Assembly: GCF_053078305.1 (NCBI RefSeq)
Contig: NZ_CP166879.1
Length of the DNA: 64,000 nucleotides
Strand: one strand, 5' to 3'
Shown: positions 47,044 through 53,111 of the stretch, in pieces
How the letters are laid out: each line of letters starts with the position of its first letter
How positions within the stretch are numbered: position 1 is the first letter of the stretch
The notes under the pieces: generated by a model
Database searches by the model: none
What the model saw: the letters and a program-made list of their open reading frames with translations, nothing else
What the model was told of the DNA's origin: nothing
Program-made: the position numbers and the translations under genes

Positions 47044-47254
47044 CGTTAAGAGTTTCTCTTCCTGAAACGTTTCGCGGAATGATACTAGTGTAGCCAGCCA
47101 ATAAGGGAGAAAAATGGAGGAATTATGAAACACTGTCGGGAATCGTCTGAATGGCGGGCACATTTGCGAGCACGCATCCAGTAATAACACAGGAAACTAT
47201 TTTATCTACGCGTTAGCGATAGACTGCATGCATGGCGAAAGGAGGTAAGCCGAC

Positions 47255-47400
47255 GATTTCAGCGGGATGCTGAAACGGGAAAGCCCCTCCCGAGGAAGGG
47301 GTCTTAAATAAGGAAAGGGTCATGATGAAGATACTCATCATCGTGGTGCTCTTAGTGATTAGCTACCCAGCATACTAAGACTACCAGGGCGGGGGAAACC
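47255..47400 (-). ncRNA. Sib-family antisense RNA, copy 1 (ends approximate)
   Basis: Placed by analogy: Sib RNAs are transcribed opposite to, and fully overlap, the ibs ORF. Ends cannot be fixed from sequence alone. Confidence 0.4.
47322..47378 (+). CDS. Ibs-family type I toxin, copy 1 (18 aa: MMKILIIVVLLVISYPAY)
   Basis: Mini-ORF preceded by aaggaaagggtc; the peptide has the characteristic Ibs hydrophobic sequence. Confidence 0.8.
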   Translation: MMKILIIVVLLVISYPAY

Positions 47401-47582
47401 CCGCTCTACCCTCACTCCTGAAAGTATGCCTTCACGTTCAGAATGTCAATCCGCAGGCTTTGCAGTCTGCGATCCTGCCAGCAAATATTCTTTGCGAGAC
47501 GTTACGCAATAATAACACAGGAAACTATTTTATCTACGCGTTAGCGATAGACTGAATTCAGGGCGAAAGGAGGTAAGCCGAC

Positions 47583-47728
47583 GATTTCAGCGGGACGCTG
47601 AAACGGGAAAGCCCCTCCCGAGGAAGGGGCCTTAAATAAGGAAAGGGTCATGATGAAGTGGATCATCATCGTGGTGCGCTTAGTCATAAGCTTCCCGGCT
47701 TACTAAGACTACCAGGGCGGGGGAAACC
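47583..47728 (-). ncRNA. Sib-family antisense RNA, copy 2 (ends approximate)
   Basis: As copy 1. Confidence 0.4.
47650..47706 (+). CDS. Ibs-family type I toxin, copy 2 (18 aa: MMKWIIIVVRLVISFPAY)
   Basis: Same position within repeat unit 2. Confidence 0.8.
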   Translation: MMKWIIIVVRLVISFPAY

Positions 47729-47919
47729 CCGCTCTACCCTCACTCCTGAAAGTATGCCTTCACGATAAGATTGTCAATCTGCAGGCTTTGCAGTCTGCGA
47801 TCCTGCCAGCAAATATTCTTTGCGAGTCGTTACGCAATAATCATAGAGGGAACTATTTTGTTCACGCGTTAGCGATAGACTGCATTCAGGGCGAAAGGAG
47901 GTAAGCCGACGATTTCAGC

Positions 47920-48070
47920 GGGACGCTGAAACGGGAAACACTCTCCCGGAGAAGAGGGCTTTTAATAAGGAAAGGGTTATGATGAAGCACGTCATCATAC
48001 TGGTGATACTCTTGGTGATTAGCTTCCAGGCTTACTAAGAACACCAGGGGGAGGGGGAAACCTCTCCCTA
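47920..48070 (-). ncRNA. Sib-family antisense RNA, copy 3 (ends approximate)
   Basis: As copy 1. Confidence 0.4.
47989..48048 (+). CDS. Ibs-family type I toxin, copy 3 (19 aa: MMKHVIILVILLVISFQAY)
   Basis: Same position within repeat unit 3. Confidence 0.8.
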
Positions 48071-48258
48071 ACCCTCACTCCTGAAATTATGTCACTCCGC
48101 CCTTAGTGTCAATCGACGGCTCTCCGTTCTTGCGAGGCGAATAGCAAAATTTTCTGCGCCGCCGGGCCTAATTCTGAAAGTTTCTTCGTTTGCTCTTATT
48201 TCATTATTGCAATCGGTATGATACCGGACCTCAATAATTCTCTAAGAAAGGATTTCTT

Positions 48259-48918
48259 ATGAGCGAACAAATCACGTTTGCCACCAGCGATTTTGCCAGT
48301 AACCCGGAACCACGTTGCCCCTGCATTTTGCTGCTGGATGTTTCTGGTTCGATGAACGGTAGACCCATTAATGAACTTAACGCCGGATTGGTTACCTTTC
48401 GCGATGAGCTGCTTGCCGACCCGCTGGCCTTAAAAAGAGTGGAACTTGGTATTGTGACGTTCGGCCCGGTGCATGTGGAACAACCCTTTACCAGCGCCGC
48501 TAATTTTTTCCCGCCCATCCTGTTTGCCCAGGGCGATACACCAATGGGTGCCGCCATTACCAAAGCCCTGGATATGGTAGAGGAGCGGAAACGTGAGTAT
48601 CGTGCAAATGGTATTTCGTATTATCGCCCGTGGATTTTCCTGATCACCGATGGTGCACCAACCGATGAGTGGCAGGCTGCCGCCAACAAAGTGTTTCAGG
48701 GGGAAGAAGATAAGAAGTTTGCCTTCTTTTCCATCGGTGTTCAGGGGGCGGATATTAAGACTCTGGCACAAATCAGCGTTCGTCAGCCTTTGCCACTGCA
48801 GGGATTACAATTCCGTGAACTGTTTAGCTGGTTATCCAGTTCGCTGCGTTCGGTTTCCCGCTCCACGCCGGGAACGGAAGTTGTGCTGGAAGCGCCAAAA
48901 GGCTGGACGTCAGTTTGA
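48259..48918 (+). CDS. yegL: von Willebrand factor A (vWA) domain protein, TerY-like
   Basis: 219 aa; a MIDAS-type motif DxSxS is visible in [12 protein letters not shown]. Confidence 0.85.
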
Positions 48919-49676
48919 GCTGGCGTCTGGTTTATGCATCCGCTGTTGGAACGTCGCACATTAGCGCTGATTTACCTTGTCAGGATGCCTGCCAGATGCA
49001 GGTTGCCTGGCTAAATGACCAGCAGCCATTACTGGTGATGTTCCTTGCTGATGGCGCAGGCAGTGTCTCGCAGGGTGGCGAAGGCGCGATGCTTGCCATC
49101 AATGAAGCGATGGCTTATGTGTCGCAAAAAGTGCAGCACGGTGAATTTGGACTCAATGATATCCTCGCCACGGATATTGTGCTGACCGTTCGTCAGCGAC
49201 TTTTTGCCGAGGCAGAAGCCAAAGCATTAGCAGTTCGCGATTTTGCCTGCACGTTTCTGGGATTGATTTCATCGGCTAACGGCACCTTGATTATGCAAAT
49301 TGGCGACGGCGGTGTAGTGGTGGATTTTGGTCGTGGTCTGGAACTGCCGCTTACGCCGATGGTGGGTGAATATGCCAATATGACGCATTTCATTAGCGAT
49401 GAAGATGCTGTTTCCAGACTGGAAACTTTCACCAGCACTGAGCGTGCGCATAAAGTTGCAGCATTTACGGATGGTATTCAGCGACTGGCGTTAAATATGC
49501 TGGATAATTCTCCGCATGTGCCTTTCTTTACCCCGTTTTTCAATGGACTGGCGGCAGCAACGCAGGAACAACTCGATTTATTACCTGAATTGTTAAAGCA
49601 GTTTTTGTCGAGCCCGGCGGTAAACGAGCGTACCGATGATGATAAAACGTTGGCACTGGCGCTGTGGTTACCATGA
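48915..49676 (+). CDS. yegK: PP2C-family Ser/Thr protein phosphatase
   Basis: 253 aa; its start overlaps the yegL stop (apparent TTG start). Contains the PP2C-type metal-binding motif ...FLADGAGS... Confidence 0.82.
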
Positions 49677-51613
49677 AACCCACTTTATATACTGCTACTG
49701 GTGAGTGCATTACGCCAGGCCGTGAACTGGGCAAAGGTGGCGAAGGCGCGGTTTATGATATCAATGAGTTTGTCGATAGCGTCGCCAAGATTTATCACAC
49801 GCCGCCACCCGCCTTAAAACAGGACAAACTTGCCTTTATGGCTGCGACAGCTGACGCGCAGTTGTTGAATTATGTCGCCTGGCCGCAGGCAACGCTTCAC
49901 GGTGGACGAGGCGGAAAAGTTATCGGTTTTATGATGCCAAAAGTTTCTGGTAAAGAACCGATTCATATGATCTATAGCCCGGCACATCGTCGCCAGAGTT
50001 ACCCTCATTGTGCGTGGGATTTTCTACTCTATGTTGCGCGCAATATTGCTTCATCTTTTGCTACGGTTCACGAGCACGGGCACGTCGTGGGTGACGTAAA
50101 CCAGAACAGCTTTATGGTAGGTCGCGACAGCAAAGTGGTGTTGATTGATAGCGACTCCTTTCAGATTAACGCTAATGGCACGTTGCATTTATGCGAAGTT
50201 GGCGTGTCGCATTTTACGCCGCCAGAGCTACAAACCTTGCCATCATTTGTCGGCTTTGAACGCACCGCGAATCACGATAATTTTGGCCTTGCGTTGCTGA
50301 TTTTTCACGTCTTGTTTGGTGGGCGGCATCCTTATTCTGGTGTGCCGCTTATCTCTGATGCGGGTAATGCGCTGGAGACGGATATTGCCCATTTCCGTTA
50401 TGCCTACGCGTCAGATAATCAGCGGCGTGGTTTAAAACCGCCGCCACGATCTATTCCGCTGTCGATGTTACCGGGCGATGTTGAAGCCATGTTTCAGCAG
50501 GCATTCACGGAAAGTGGCGTGGCAACGGGGCGTCCGACGGCTAAAGCGTGGGTAGCGGCACTGGACTCTCTACGCCAACAGTTAAAGAAATGTACCGTTT
50601 CAGCAATGCATGTTTACCCCGCTCATTTGACTGATTGCCCGTGGTGTACGCTGGATAATCAAGGCGTTATCTATTTTATTGATCTCGGCGAAGAGGTCAT
50701 TACCACCAGTGGTGATTTTGTGCTGGCGAAAGTCTGGGCGATGGTGATGGCGTCAGTAGCACCGCCAGCATTGCAATTGCCATTACCCGATCATTTCCAA
50801 CCGACTGGCAGGCCGCTTCCTTTAGGCCTGTTACGGCGCGAATACATCATTCTGATTGAGATCGCACTGTCAGCGTTATCGCTGTTGCTTTGCGGCCTTC
50901 AGGCAGAACCGCGTTATATTATTTTGGTTCCTGTGCTGGCGGCTATCTGGATTATTGGCAGTCTGACAAGCAAAGCTTATAAAGCAGAAATCCAGCAACG
51001 CCGTGAGGCATTTAATCGCGCGAAAATGGACTATGACCATTTAGTCAGCCAGATCCAACAGTTGGGCGGGCTGGAAGGTTTTATCGCCAAACGGACGATG
51101 CTCGAAAAAATGAAGGACGAAATGCTCGGGTTACCGGAAGAAGAAAAACGTGCTCTGGCAGCACTTCACGACACCGCAAGGGAACGGCAGAAGCAGAAGT
51201 TTCTGGAGGGATTTTTTATTGATGTTGCCTCTATTCCCGGCGTTGGCCCTGCGCGTAAAGCGGCGTTACGGTCCTTTGGTATTGAAACAGCAGCGGATGT
51301 TACCCGTCGTGGGGTTAAGCAAGTGAAAGGGTTTGGTGATCATCTGACCCAGGCAGTTATCGACTGGAAAGCAAGTTGCGAACGCCGTTTTGTGTTCAGG
51401 CCGAATGAAGCGGTAACGCCAGCAGACAGACAAGCGGTAATGGCGAAAATGACCGCCAAACGACATCGGCTGGAATCGACGTTGACTGTCGGCGCGACAG
51501 AGTTGCAGCGATTTCGCCTTCATGCTCCAGCACGGACCATGCCGTTGATGGAACCTTTACGTCAGGCGGCAGAAAAACTGGCTCAGGCGCAAGCAGATTT
51601 AAGCCGCTGCTGA
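49664..51613 (+). CDS. yegI: Atypical Ser/Thr protein kinase-like protein with C-terminal membrane and coiled-coil regions
   Basis: 649-aa track ORF; the likely start is the ATG at 49673, overlapping the yegK stop as ATGA. Degenerate kinase motifs: GKGGEGAVYD (Gly-rich loop), VAKIYH, HVVGDVNQNS (catalytic-loop-like), IDSDSF (DFG-like). Confidence 0.82.
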   Translation: MVTMKPTLYTATGECITPGRELGKGGEGAVYDINEFVDSVAKIYHTPPPALKQDKLAFMAATADAQLLNYVAWPQATLHGGRGGKVIGFMMPKVSGKEPIHMIYSPAHRRQSYPHCAWDFLLYVARNIASSFATVHEHGHVVGDVNQNSFMVGRDSKVVLIDSDSFQINANGTLHLCEVGVSHFTPPELQTLPSFVGFERTANHDNFGLALLIFHVLFGGRHPYSGVPLISDAGNALETDIAHFRYAYASDNQRRGLKPPPRSIPLSMLPGDVEAMFQQAFTESGVATGRPTAKAWVAALDSLRQQLKKCTVSAMHVYPAHLTDCPWCTLDNQGVIYFIDLGEEVITTSGDFVLAKVWAMVMASVAPPALQLPLPDHFQPTGRPLPLGLLRREYIILIEIALSALSLLLCGLQAEPRYIILVPVLAAIWIIGSLTSKAYKAEIQQRREAFNRAKMDYDHLVSQIQQLGGLEGFIAKRTMLEKMKDEMLGLPEEEKRALAALHDTARERQKQKFLEGFFIDVASIPGVGPARKAALRSFGIETAADVTRRGVKQVKGFGDHLTQAVIDWKASCERRFVFRPNEAVTPADRQAVMAKMTAKRHRLESTLTVGATELQRFRLHAPARTMPLMEPLRQAAEKLAQAQADLSRC

Positions 51614-51625
51614 GCCATTTTTCAA

Positions 51626-52978
51626 TTAACGAAACACCACTTCCGCCCAGCGTGCCAGCCCGGCGGTGACGGAGCCAAAGTCATCGCCGCCTGCAATCGG
51701 AATGCCCGGCAACTGTTCTGCCAGCGCTTTTTTAATCAGCGGCGAACGGGCGCTACCGCCGGTCAGGTAGATGACATCCGGTTTTTCCTGGGCGTTATCC
51801 AGGGCCAGTTGCACCTGTTCCAGAATCCGCGCCAGTGGCTGGCTGAGGGCGCTTTCCAGCCCTTGCTGGCTAATCAGCGTAGCCAGTTCATCGCTGATAA
51901 ACGGCAGTGAGGCGCGGATTTCCGCTACGCTTGAAAGAGCAATTTTGCACTCTTCTGCGCTACGCACCAGGCGATAGCTTAAACGCTGACGCCAGACTTT
52001 CTGTAGCAGGGCCACTTTTTCCGGTTCGCGGGCATCGCGTACCAGATCGTTAAGCAGACGACCGTTGGCACTACTGTAGAAATCACTCTGCGCAGGAACG
52101 TCGTTGATGGCAACCGCATTCCACCACGGCAGAATCGGCAGGGCGATGCCTTTTTCGGTTTCGCCGCCCATGCCCAGTAACGGCATCAGGTTTTTAAACG
52201 CCAGCGCGATATCCAGATCGTTACCGCCAATACGGCAACCACTGTGACCCAGCAGGCTGGCTTCACGATCGAGACGCGAACGCCACTGCGGCCCCATCAG
52301 CAGCAATGAACAGTCAGTCGTACCACCGCCGATATCCACCACCAGCACCCGTTTTTCTTCCTGCAAAGTCGCTTCGTAATCCAGCCCTGCCGCTACCGGC
52401 TCGTACTGGAATACCACATCCTTAAACCCGGCACGCTTCGCCGCGCGTTCCAGAATCCCTTGCGCCTGGGCGTTTGCTTCATCGCCGCCCAGCCCCTGGA
52501 AGTTGATCGGGCGACCAATCACCGCCTGAGTAATCGCTTCTGGCAGCTGCGCCTGCGCCTGCTGGCGAATGTGCAACATCATTGCGCAGACCAGATCCTC
52601 AAACAGCGCTACCTGCTGCGGTTTTAAGCCGCTGGCACCGAGGAACGATTTTGGTGATTTCACAAACCACACTTCTTCTGGATCATCAATGTACTGTGCC
52701 AGTGAGGAAAGACCGAACTGCACGCTTTTCGCCGTAACATCGATATCTTCTTCGCGGTTATAACGAATCGCCCGACGCAACAGCGCCTGCGTTTCATCGT
52801 CGTCTGCCGGAACATCATGATGGCGGTACAGCCATTCGCTTACCGCTTCACGCGTTGGCGCGCAAAGCATTGAAGGCAGCAGCGTGCTGTCGTTTTCCAT
52901 TTTTAGCAAGTGCGGTTTACCGTCACGCATGACCGCCACTGAACAGTTTGCTGTACCGTAATCAAAACCAATAAACAC
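51626..52978 (-). CDS. yegD: Hsp70/actin-fold ATPase-family protein
   Basis: N-terminal FIGFDYGTANCSVAV is an Hsp70-like phosphate-1 motif; convergent with yegI. Start taken at the GTG giving about 450 aa. Confidence 0.82.
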   Translation of the reverse strand: MFIGFDYGTANCSVAVMRDGKPHLLKMENDSTLLPSMLCAPTREAVSEWLYRHHDVPADDDETQALLRRAIRYNREEDIDVTAKSVQFGLSSLAQYIDDPEEVWFVKSPKSFLGASGLKPQQVALFEDLVCAMMLHIRQQAQAQLPEAITQAVIGRPINFQGLGGDEANAQAQGILERAAKRAGFKDVVFQYEPVAAGLDYEATLQEEKRVLVVDIGGGTTDCSLLLMGPQWRSRLDREASLLGHSGCRIGGNDLDIALAFKNLMPLLGMGGETEKGIALPILPWWNAVAINDVPAQSDFYSSANGRLLNDLVRDAREPEKVALLQKVWRQRLSYRLVRSAEECKIALSSVAEIRASLPFISDELATLISQQGLESALSQPLARILEQVQLALDNAQEKPDVIYLTGGSARSPLIKKALAEQLPGIPIAGGDDFGSVTAGLARWAEVVFR

Positions 52979-53111
52979 GAAATAATCCCCATGCCGGTGA
53001 AGAAGGGGCGTGACTTTAGCGAAATGTTGCCGTCGCGACAACCGGAATATGAAAGCAAAGCGCAGCGTCTGAATAACGTTTATGCTGAAAGCGGATAAAC
53101 AAGGAGATGCG

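Follow-up and report, generated by a model that had tools for sequence, protein, structure and literature searches.

The yegL-pphC-yegI genes of Escherichia form a TerY-P-type phosphorylation cassette with a tentative role in protection against invading DNA

Which function a eukaryote-like Ser/Thr kinase and its phosphatase exert in Escherichia coli, and why both are encoded together with a von Willebrand factor A (vWA) protein, is the question raised by the locus yegL-pphC-yegI, which was analyzed here in a stretch of 64,000 nucleotides (the window) from contig NZ_CP166879.1 of NCBI RefSeq assembly GCF_053078305.1. The PP2C-type phosphatase PphC (YegK) and the kinase YegI are the only PP2C/eukaryote-like Ser/Thr kinase pair described in E. 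coli, and two biochemical studies deal with them (bioRxiv 10.1101/303594; bioRxiv 10.1101/819920). Publications already cover the locus and its annotation, what PphC and YegI do as enzymes, the two-pass topology of YegI and the TerY-P (TerY-phosphorylation) concept, and in this respect the finding is known. We add that the three genes form a conserved cassette homologous to the prototype found in the tellurite-resistance (ter) cluster, we provide a domain map of YegI, we exclude the neighboring yegD and the Sib/Ibs array as components, we describe the defence-island context of relatives, and we report that standard defence-finder models miss both the yegLKI subfamily and the ter-cluster prototype. 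We read yegL-pphC-yegI as a phospho-switch of the TerY-P type and, as a hypothesis, offer defence against invading DNA that is sensed through a membrane-tethered helix-hairpin-helix (HhH) domain; protection against invading DNA is the role which we tentatively rate as the most probable one, at a confidence that stays below one half.

The window is a segment of an Escherichia chromosome with 98% identity to E. coli O157:H7 and other strains across the locus, and the gene order is mdtB-mdtA, the Sib/Ibs array, yegL, pphC, yegI, yegD, alkA and dgcE. The three genes of the triad share one strand (the length of YegI is counted from ATG):

48259 to 48918, plus strand: yegL, TerY-like vWA protein of 219 amino acids (open reading frame, RefSeq, PF00092, match to TerY of the ter cluster, conservation in 39 family members)
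48915 to 49676, plus strand: pphC (yegK), PP2C-type Ser/Thr phosphatase of 253 amino acids (open reading frame, RefSeq, PF13672, published activity)
49673 to 51613, plus strand: yegI, inner-membrane Ser/Thr kinase of 646 amino acids (open reading frame, RefSeq, AlphaFold2 (AF2) model, published activity and topology)

As read directly from the sequence, the stop codon of yegL and the start codon of pphC overlap in TTGA (48915-48918), while the stop codon of pphC and the start codon of yegI overlap in ATGA (49673-49676), and RefSeq lists the same three genes with identical lengths and overlaps in E. coli O157:H7 TR01. A 4-nucleotide overlap of yegL and yegK is present in 39 of 51 loci, a set that includes some duplicate records, and in most of these 51 loci the junction of yegK and yegI is either a 4-nucleotide overlap or a gap of at most 9 nucleotides. 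Since a start codon at one fixed in-frame position is expected by chance in approximately 5% of loci, the yegL/yegK overlap reflects more than chance. An earlier interpretation of this DNA made from the letters alone (the sequence-only reading) had proposed that yegL, yegK and yegI form one coupled operon, and the open reading frames, the TTGA and ATGA overlaps, the RefSeq annotation and the recurrence of the overlap elsewhere bear this out. A scan for promoters and terminators gave nothing above the expectation from shuffled sequence, neither a promoter ahead of yegL nor a terminator in the gap from yegI to yegD, and the GC profile of the triad is ordinary and near the genome average, showing no compositional sign of recent acquisition.

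Is this arrangement a peculiarity of Escherichia or a unit of its own? A survey with one genome per species yielded 43 loci encoding a YegI relative, distributed over Escherichia, Klebsiella spallanzanii, many Burkholderiales, Georgenia (Actinobacteria), Acidobacteria, Cyanobacteria, Planctomycetes, Myxococcota and Lentisphaerae. In approximately 40 of the 43 loci, from seven phyla, the genes follow the order yegL-yegK-yegI with tight spacing; the deviations stem from one locus in which the kinase stands alone, from a single rearranged locus and from contig ends. A look-up of exact proteins returned further contexts, and all 10 contain vWA, PP2C and kinase genes in this order, so that the synteny survey which the sequence-only reading had proposed finds the genes linked. 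The family of YegI is large, with 3220 clusters at 50% identity scoring at E <= 1e-30, and colinearity over approximately 640 residues holds for most of the top 150. Across loci, YegL is the best conserved member, with 49–85% identity to the window protein even in Planctomycetes, while the identities amount to 31–67% for PphC and 33–62% for YegI. Clustering of the flanking open reading frames revealed no fourth gene that travels with the triad, and the only neighbors that recur occasionally are DUF4236 proteins, a secreted nuclease of the staphylococcal nuclease (SNase) type and a BrxR/WYL regulator. Other recurrent clusters of neighboring open reading frames were dropped, as they consisted of antisense frames inside yegL or yegK of GC-rich genomes or of mixed, unrelated proteins. 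The triad yegL-pphC-yegI is a self-contained, horizontally spread cassette which is inherited as one unit.

The identity of this cassette becomes apparent from its comparison with the ter cluster. The nearest annotated relatives of YegL in a tblastn search are plasmid-encoded TerY and TerY-C proteins, and the TerY-P triad of the IncHI2 ter cluster (L055, Salmonella plasmid NZ_CP149279.1) presents the same order of vWA, PP2C and kinase genes as yegLKI. YegL is 31% identical to the TerY protein of this cluster (E 1e-26), including a C-terminal F..W.S.S tail; full-length PphC matches the C-terminal PP2C domain of the corresponding ter-cluster protein (E 2e-5); and YegI residues 202–338 match the kinase C-lobe and the C..CP[WY]C zinc ribbon of the ter kinase, in which it reads C..CPYC (E 6e-5). 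As all three members are homologous to the ter-cluster prototype, yegLKI is a genuine but divergent TerY-P triad, and the earlier suggestion of a TerY-P-type composition is exceeded by sequence homology of all three proteins in the same order. The two versions nevertheless differ in composition. The IncHI2 cluster has the gene order DUF4236, terW, VWA, TerD, VWA, TerY-C, PP2C and kinase, so that three TerY paralogues are interleaved with a TerD-family gene, its PP2C protein of 545 amino acids carries an extra N-terminal domain, and its kinase is a soluble protein of 499 amino acids. The yegLKI version, by contrast, makes do with one vWA gene, its PP2C is minimal, and its kinase continues into a membrane hairpin, a stalk and an (HhH)2 domain. 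While the ter version is embedded in ter and biosynthetic genes, neither TerD/TerZ-family genes nor ter biosynthetic genes are found near the E. coli triad or among the recurrent neighbors elsewhere, DUF4236 being the only neighbor common to yegLKI-type triads and the ter cluster. The TerY-P triad of the ter cluster was described by Anantharaman, Iyer and Aravind in 2012, as related in PMC11090510 and PMC4978471, and according to the account in PMC11090510 it was hypothesized to act as a metal-sensing phosphorylation switch.

Among the side observations on these neighbors, a DUF4236 gene is located just upstream of the triad in distant taxa (L008 3578-4750, L012 3331-4473, L033 4746-5987, L038 5005-6330 and L050 3962-5182), and it is also present in the IncHI2 ter cluster beside terW and TerY (L055 1813-3021). 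DUF4236 may be an occasional accessory component common to TerY-P variants. In several Burkholderiales loci, yegL is immediately preceded by a gene of the staphylococcal nuclease type whose product has a signal-peptide-like N-terminus (L006 5932-6474, L047 7932-8474 and L050 7917-8501).

YegL matches the vWA profiles PF00092 (VWA, 3.9e-9) and PF13519 (VWA_2, 5.5e-7), and its metal-ion-dependent adhesion site (MIDAS) is complete, consisting of D27-x-S29-x-S31 (nucleotides 48337-48351), T94 and D131, each of which is at least 95% conserved in 39 family members. The assignment of YegL as a vWA protein with a MIDAS, and the motifs from which it had been read, DVSGSM at YegL residues 27–32 (nucleotides 48337-48354) and ADGAGS at PphC residues 45–50 (nucleotides 49047-49064), are thereby confirmed. 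A search against the sequences of solved structures gave nothing useful for YegL. Two further segments are characteristic of the family: a near-invariant N-terminal peptide, F12-A-x-N-P-E-P-R19 (window 48292-48318), which TerY of the ter cluster does not possess, and a conserved Ser-rich C-terminal tail, W191-L-S-x-S...V-S-x-S202 (residues 191–202, window 48829-48864). Both segments are conserved to at least 95% and are candidate docking or phospho-acceptor sites, the conserved serines S193, S195, S200 and S202 of the tail being the candidate acceptors.

PphC matches the profile PF13672 (PP2C_2, 2.2e-47), and its metal-site residues D46, G47, D131, D186 and D241–243 are conserved to at least 95% in 40 homologues; its DGAGS motif is located as follows:

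49050 to 49064, plus strand: DGAGS motif of PphC (sequence)

The earlier assignment to PP2C agrees with the published work, in which PphC is an active PP2C phosphatase that dephosphorylates YegI (bioRxiv 10.1101/303594). The start codon of pphC is TTG in the window, compared with GTG in all 7 other Escherichia loci compared; as TTG is the weaker start, translation of the phosphatase may drop relative to the kinase. Furthermore, within Escherichia no other gene of the locus has diverged nearly as much as pphC, which shows 81–97% amino acid identity against 96–99% for yegL (window versus L001–L004, L015, L052 and L053), and two allele groups of pphC in Escherichia carry different RefSeq names.

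The architecture of YegI was derived from the AF2 model, which was built on 27 homologues (mean pLDDT 87.5), in combination with conservation and published data:

49673 to 50572, plus strand: kinase domain, residues 1–300, with P-loop GKGGEG (20–25), K39, VGDVNQNS (139–146) and DSD (159–161) (Foldseek, conservation)
50591 to 50647, plus strand: zinc-ribbon-like module, C307-x5-H313-x4-H318-x3-C322-P-W-C325 (conservation, alignment with the ter kinase, AF2)
50843 to 50971, plus strand: membrane hairpin, transmembrane segments TM1 (391–409) and TM2 (415–433) with a loop of approximately 5 residues (hydropathy, AF2, published PhoA-LacZ fusions)
50972 to 51208, plus strand: helical, coiled-coil-like stalk, residues 434–512 (AF2)
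51215 to 51385, plus strand: (HhH)2 domain, residues 515–571, IPGVGPARKAAL... and VKGFGDHLTQAV... (PF14520, AF2, Foldseek)
51419 to 51604, plus strand: C-terminal long helix, residues 583–644, ending in a conserved AQAQADL (AF2, two alignments)

A comparison of residues 1–300 with the PDB by Foldseek retrieved PknB, PknA, Eph and Aurora kinases with a probability of 1.0 and TM-scores to the target of 0.6–0.7, and K39, D141, N143, D159 and D161 are invariant in 27 sequences. At the level of sequence profiles the relationship is hardly recognizable: the Pfam search of YegI gave no Pkinase match (PF00069 none at E <= 10) and only a weak HHH_5 match, weak matches to kinase profiles were obtained for LanL (NCBIfam, 3e-6) and PD-T4-6 (PADLOC, 2e-4), and a sequence search of solved structures returned only marginal matches to kinase catalytic loops (TTK/PknE, approximately 0.02) and no solved structure of the YegI family. 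The published count assigns 7 of 10 invariant kinase residues to YegI, in which VGDxxQxS stands for HRD..N and DSD for DFG, and the enzyme autophosphorylates on activation-loop serines, needs K39 and D141, and prefers Mn2+ (bioRxiv 10.1101/819920). PphC removes these activation-loop phosphates (bioRxiv 10.1101/303594), and YegI in turn phosphorylates PphC in vitro (bioRxiv 10.1101/819920 and 10.1101/303594). The degenerate kinase motifs pointed out earlier (K39, VGDVNQNS and DSD) are thus present, and the claim of a kinase holds for an atypical kinase by AF2, Foldseek and published activity, not for a protein with a Pfam Pkinase profile match.

Downstream of the kinase domain, all 27 sequences compared share C307, H313, C322 and C325, and H318 does not vary in a set of 12 sequences; residues 304–329 are modelled as a beta-hairpin followed by a helix, and the segment C307–C325 matches no zinc-ribbon profile. 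The conserved pattern and the model suggest that this segment is a zinc-ribbon-like module. The AF2 helices 389–408 and 413–465 span the membrane hairpin, and mapping with PhoA-LacZ fusions showed two passes of YegI through the inner membrane and a cytoplasmic location of its two termini (bioRxiv 10.1101/819920). A periplasmic sensor domain does not fit into the loop between TM1 and TM2, which comprises approximately 5 residues. The stalk is modelled by the helices 413–465, 467–485 and 487–512 with a pLDDT of approximately 90. The (HhH)2 subdomain reaches a pLDDT of 90.4 when AF2 is run on it alone and matches PF14520 (HHH_5, 2.6e-4), and its top Foldseek matches are the (HhH)2 modules of Rad51, Dmc1, RadA, LigA, DisA, RuvA and NusA-AR2 (probability up to 0.98, root-mean-square deviation 2.5–3.0 Å), with E-values all above 0.1 that are non-significant alone and used only to support the HHH_5 match. 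It is the best-conserved part of the C-terminal half, with 0 of 65 residues differing from K-12, and database names already call YegI a helix-hairpin-helix protein with a kinase domain. The C-terminal membrane/coiled-coil region announced by the sequence-only reading is therefore confirmed as hairpin and stalk, and the (HhH)2 domain and the long helix are added to it. In plasmids of Sphingobium/Sphingomonas (H96, H97 and H115) the kinase and zinc-ribbon core (YegI 1–330) is fused to a module annotated as a C4 zinc finger of the topoisomerase type. Given the versions with a C4 finger, an OB fold or a zinc ribbon, nucleic-acid-binding tails suggest themselves as recurrent and interchangeable parts of YegI-type kinases.

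Kinase and phosphatase are an antagonistic pair, in which the kinase is anchored in the membrane and faces the cytoplasm. This resembles the Hanks-type pairs PknB/PstP, PrkC/PrpC and Stk1/Stp1, which likewise combine a bilobed kinase and activation-loop autophosphorylation with a cognate PP2C, encoded in the same operon, by which the kinase is dephosphorylated. YegI differs from them in several aspects: it lacks an extracellular PASTA-type or other sensor, as its periplasmic loop comprises approximately 5 residues; its signature reads VGDxxQxS and DSD where these kinases have HRDxxxxN and DFG, with no Pfam Pkinase match; and it is tied to an obligatory vWA partner gene and carries an HhH tail in the cytoplasm. 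A working model would start from a resting state in which PphC holds YegI off. A cue that involves nucleic acid at the inner membrane would then favor dimers of YegI mediated by the stalk, which would autophosphorylate; the published autophosphorylation kinetics are second-order and consistent with dimerization (bioRxiv 10.1101/819920). Phage DNA that enters the cell or is replicated and that is bound by the (HhH)2 domain would be the most likely cue, and this tail may serve as the receptor of the cue or as a tether. Active YegI would phosphorylate YegL and/or other targets, making YegL a possible substrate and/or an output adaptor through its MIDAS site, and via this metal site YegL might engage a conserved cellular or phage ligand, with the consequence that infection would be blocked or DNA metabolism disturbed. 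A genome-wide screen lists overproduced YegL and overproduced YegI each among the DNA-damage-up proteins (bioRxiv 10.1101/354589), an effect which fits an output that touches DNA metabolism. In Escherichia the cassette would have become a fixed, weakly expressed chromosomal resident.

Why should such a switch serve protection against invading DNA? We rate this role as the most likely one for two reasons: other TerY-P subfamilies block T7-like phages, and relatives of the triad are located in defence islands. The stand-alone TerY-P system of Gao et al. 2020 (Science) protects against T7-like phages, as reported in PMC7699616 and PMC11090510, and as far as these sources describe it, it is likewise a three-gene cassette of vWA, PP2C and Ser/Thr kinase which is able to act alone and resides in defence islands. 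According to PMC11090510 the kinase of this type ends in an OB fold, whereas YegI ends in a transmembrane hairpin, a coil, (HhH)2 and a long helix. In PADLOC, the TerY model matches YegL with an E-value of only 0.017 (12.6 bits), which is the sole match to a model named after TerY-P, and in view of this score and of the (HhH)2 domain in place of an OB fold, yegLKI does not belong to the experimentally validated Gao subfamily. A variant of TerY-P from Pseudomonas aeruginosa was missed by PADLOC and DefenseFinder, found by hand and shown to protect against phage (PMC10889362), which demonstrates that divergent triads can be functional defences though models miss them. The other described triads, including this variant, consist, by their descriptions, of vWA, PP2C and a kinase whose catalytic domain is followed by a zinc ribbon; they are embedded next to CnuH/CnuE helicase-nuclease genes, or are found together with Druantia III and Mokosh, whereas the yegLKI type has no conserved fourth gene. 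The statement in the sequence-only reading that triads of this kind protect against phage thus holds for other subfamilies (PMC7699616, PMC11090510, PMC10889362) and does not extend to the yegLKI subfamily, for which no phage phenotype is reported.

The genomic surroundings of the triad outside Escherichia point in the same direction. Six of nine informative non-Escherichia contexts contain defence or mobile genes within 10 kb:

L045, Klebsiella spallanzanii: GmrSD, type I restriction-modification, BrnA, SymE
L047, Piscinibacter: SNase, BrxR, SLFN-type helicase, MazG-like, ScoMcrA/NOV_C, JetB
L048, Chromobacterium: AbiH, KAP NTPase, Tn7-like transposon
L049, metagenomic contig: type I restriction-modification, Mrr
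L057: GmrSD, giant NERD-kinase protein, MmeI-type methylase
L058: AbiJ

The triad family is also found on megaplasmids of Pseudomonas (including pQBR103), Cupriavidus and Ralstonia. A collection of phage genomes gave one weak partial match, and the triad is not phage-borne.

Several observations weigh against a role in protection against invading DNA. The count of defence contexts is guilt by association and not a statistic against background. In E. coli the triad is core and single-copy, it has an ordinary GC content and a fixed place amid housekeeping genes, which is not how an accessory defence system typically looks, and the conservation of YegL far exceeds what is usual for defence proteins. 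The literature that was searched contains no paper linking yegLKI to phage and no phage phenotype for the subfamily, and published studies found transcription of the triad to be undetectable or very low under laboratory conditions. Some strains have lost the intact form: the K-12 lineage carries an insertion of yegJ which replaces the N-terminus of YegI (L052 4983-5444 and 5644-7590), yegI is frameshifted in AR Bank #0346 (L053 4915-6857), and strain 19-5 has a clean deletion of the triad, after which 108 nucleotides from the 3' end of yegI remain and yegD is undamaged (L060 9027-9134). The intact operon is the B/O157-type form, the K-12 form being interrupted by yegJ. At the level of the model, we infer DNA binding by the HhH domain, for which the Foldseek matches fall short of significance, as well as the phosphorylation of YegL and the identity of the trigger. 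PADLOC, run on the three proteins and on YegD, produced no usable call; apart from the low-scoring TerY match, it gave no match for PphC and only weak matches of YegI to kinase models of other systems (PD-T4-6 and MkoA). As a control, the IncHI2 ter prototype triad was missed by PADLOC too; the coverage of TerY-P in this library is narrow, and the miss is uninformative on membership in the wider TerY-P family. Its use as evidence against such membership was dropped once the prototype was missed as well.

The first alternative sees in the triad a housekeeping stress-signalling module, which would respond to stress of endogenous or chemical origin, be it metal or tellurite-type oxidants, a damaged membrane or damaged DNA, and adjust the physiology of the cell by Ser/Thr phosphorylation; it is the strongest competitor and we consider it possible, though on the unlikely side. 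It follows the original proposal of a metal-sensing switch for TerY-P, as given in PMC11090510, and it agrees with the homology to the triad inside the ter cluster and with the complete MIDAS metal site. The status of the triad in E. coli fits it as well. At a coverage of at least 80% the triad is present in 5402 of 5426 complete E. coli genomes (99.6%), as a single chromosomal copy with a GC content near the genome average, and the ratio of nonsynonymous to synonymous substitution rates (dN/dS) amounts to 0.04–0.10 for yegL, 0.14–0.24 for pphC and 0.10–0.14 for yegI at dS values of up to 0.8, which shows that all three genes are under sustained purifying selection, yegL especially, and are still functional. 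The neighbors alkA (alkylation repair) and yegD are related to stress, overproduction of YegL and YegI raises DNA damage, and some loci outside Escherichia lie among housekeeping genes, the context of L051 being purely of this kind. On the other hand, TerD/TerZ-type genes are absent from the vicinity of the triad, both in Escherichia and in the further loci inspected, published studies found no inducing stress, and defence genes, Tn7-like elements and megaplasmids are frequent in the surroundings. The patchy occurrence across seven phyla, with 50–60% identity between E. coli and Betaproteobacteria, speaks for horizontal spread and against vertical descent of a housekeeping module. As an observation on the species, the best identity of the triad to any of the 5426 complete genomes is approximately 98% and the range within the species extends down to 94.6%, which is rather diverse for core genes.

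That the Escherichia triad is a domesticated remnant heading for loss, acquired once between mdtA and yegD, nearly silent and with no present role, appears improbable to us. The low transcription, the disruptions in K-12, AR Bank #0346 and 19-5 and the weaker TTG start of pphC in the window would be expected of such a remnant, and mutations in yegI recur in long-term evolution lines, as far as the cited literature recounts. A gene set in decay would, however, hardly be retained over at least 80% of its length in 5402 of 5426 complete genomes with dN/dS values of 0.04–0.24, all catalytic and MIDAS residues are intact in the window, and the purified enzymes are active according to the published work.

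The neighbors on both sides were considered as additional components and are given here as context only:

51626 to 52978, minus strand: yegD, Hsp70/actin-fold ATPase of 450 amino acids, convergent neighbor (NF008673, 810 bits, full length)
47163 to 48112, Sib RNAs on the minus strand and Ibs open reading frames on the plus strand: Sib/Ibs type I toxin-antitoxin array of three tandem units of 328 bp (Rfam RF00113, direct repeats, RefSeq Ibs coding sequences)

The right-hand end of the region had been placed at 53041, which reflects the longest open reading frame for yegD; the annotated gene extends from 51626 to 52978 with a full-length match to NF008673, and the earlier end has to be corrected. 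Only 12 bp separate the stop codons of the convergent genes yegI and yegD (51613-51626), with no terminator-like site between them, so that transcripts of either gene would run antisense into the other. Homologues of yegD, alkA and mdtA accompany the triad only in Escherichia: no yegD homologue is located within 8–10 kb of the triad in approximately 45 loci outside this genus, and the triad of K. spallanzanii occupies a different genomic place and has no yegD beside it. As the adjacency is confined to Escherichia and yegD is kept in the 19-5 deletion of the triad, yegD is a neighbor and not a component, and the suggestion that it is a partner or target of the triad is not supported. A four-gene unit with YegD as kinase substrate or as chaperone of the membrane complex is accordingly very improbable. 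The constant convergent arrangement in all Escherichia loci and the strong induction of yegD by overexpressed yegJ, which is located inside the K-12 triad (PMC13232886), speak for it; this distribution and the position of yegD on the opposite strand, which precludes co-transcription, speak against it.

The Sib/Ibs array on the other side is real, with three matches to SIB_RNA (RF00113) on the minus strand at 47307-48112 (136–147 bits). The window has three units, as in O157:H7, and K-12 has two at the same site, so that the copy number varies between lineages. Its adjacency had been taken as typical of a defence or stress neighborhood; the adjacency itself stands and this interpretation does not, as the array is specific to Escherichia and the flanking genes mdtABCD, yegD, alkA and dgcE are housekeeping genes.

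Protection against invading DNA can finally be taken one step further, to the statement that the yegLKI subfamily is a distinct and widespread immune sensor, with more than 3000 clusters at 50% identity, which current defence models do not detect and in which the HhH-tailed kinase of the inner membrane would detect phage DNA during its entry or its replication at the membrane and signal via the ultra-conserved YegL. We regard this stronger version as rather unlikely. If it were true, nearly every E. coli would carry an unrecognized anti-phage system in its core genome, which would have been inactivated in K-12 by the yegJ insertion, and the sole Hanks-type kinase/PP2C pair of E. coli would gain its long-missing function. 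The reading of yegLKI as a phage defence is plausible; should it prove wrong, the fact that nearly all E. coli keep the triad, and do so under purifying selection, would still point to an unrecognized stress-signalling function.

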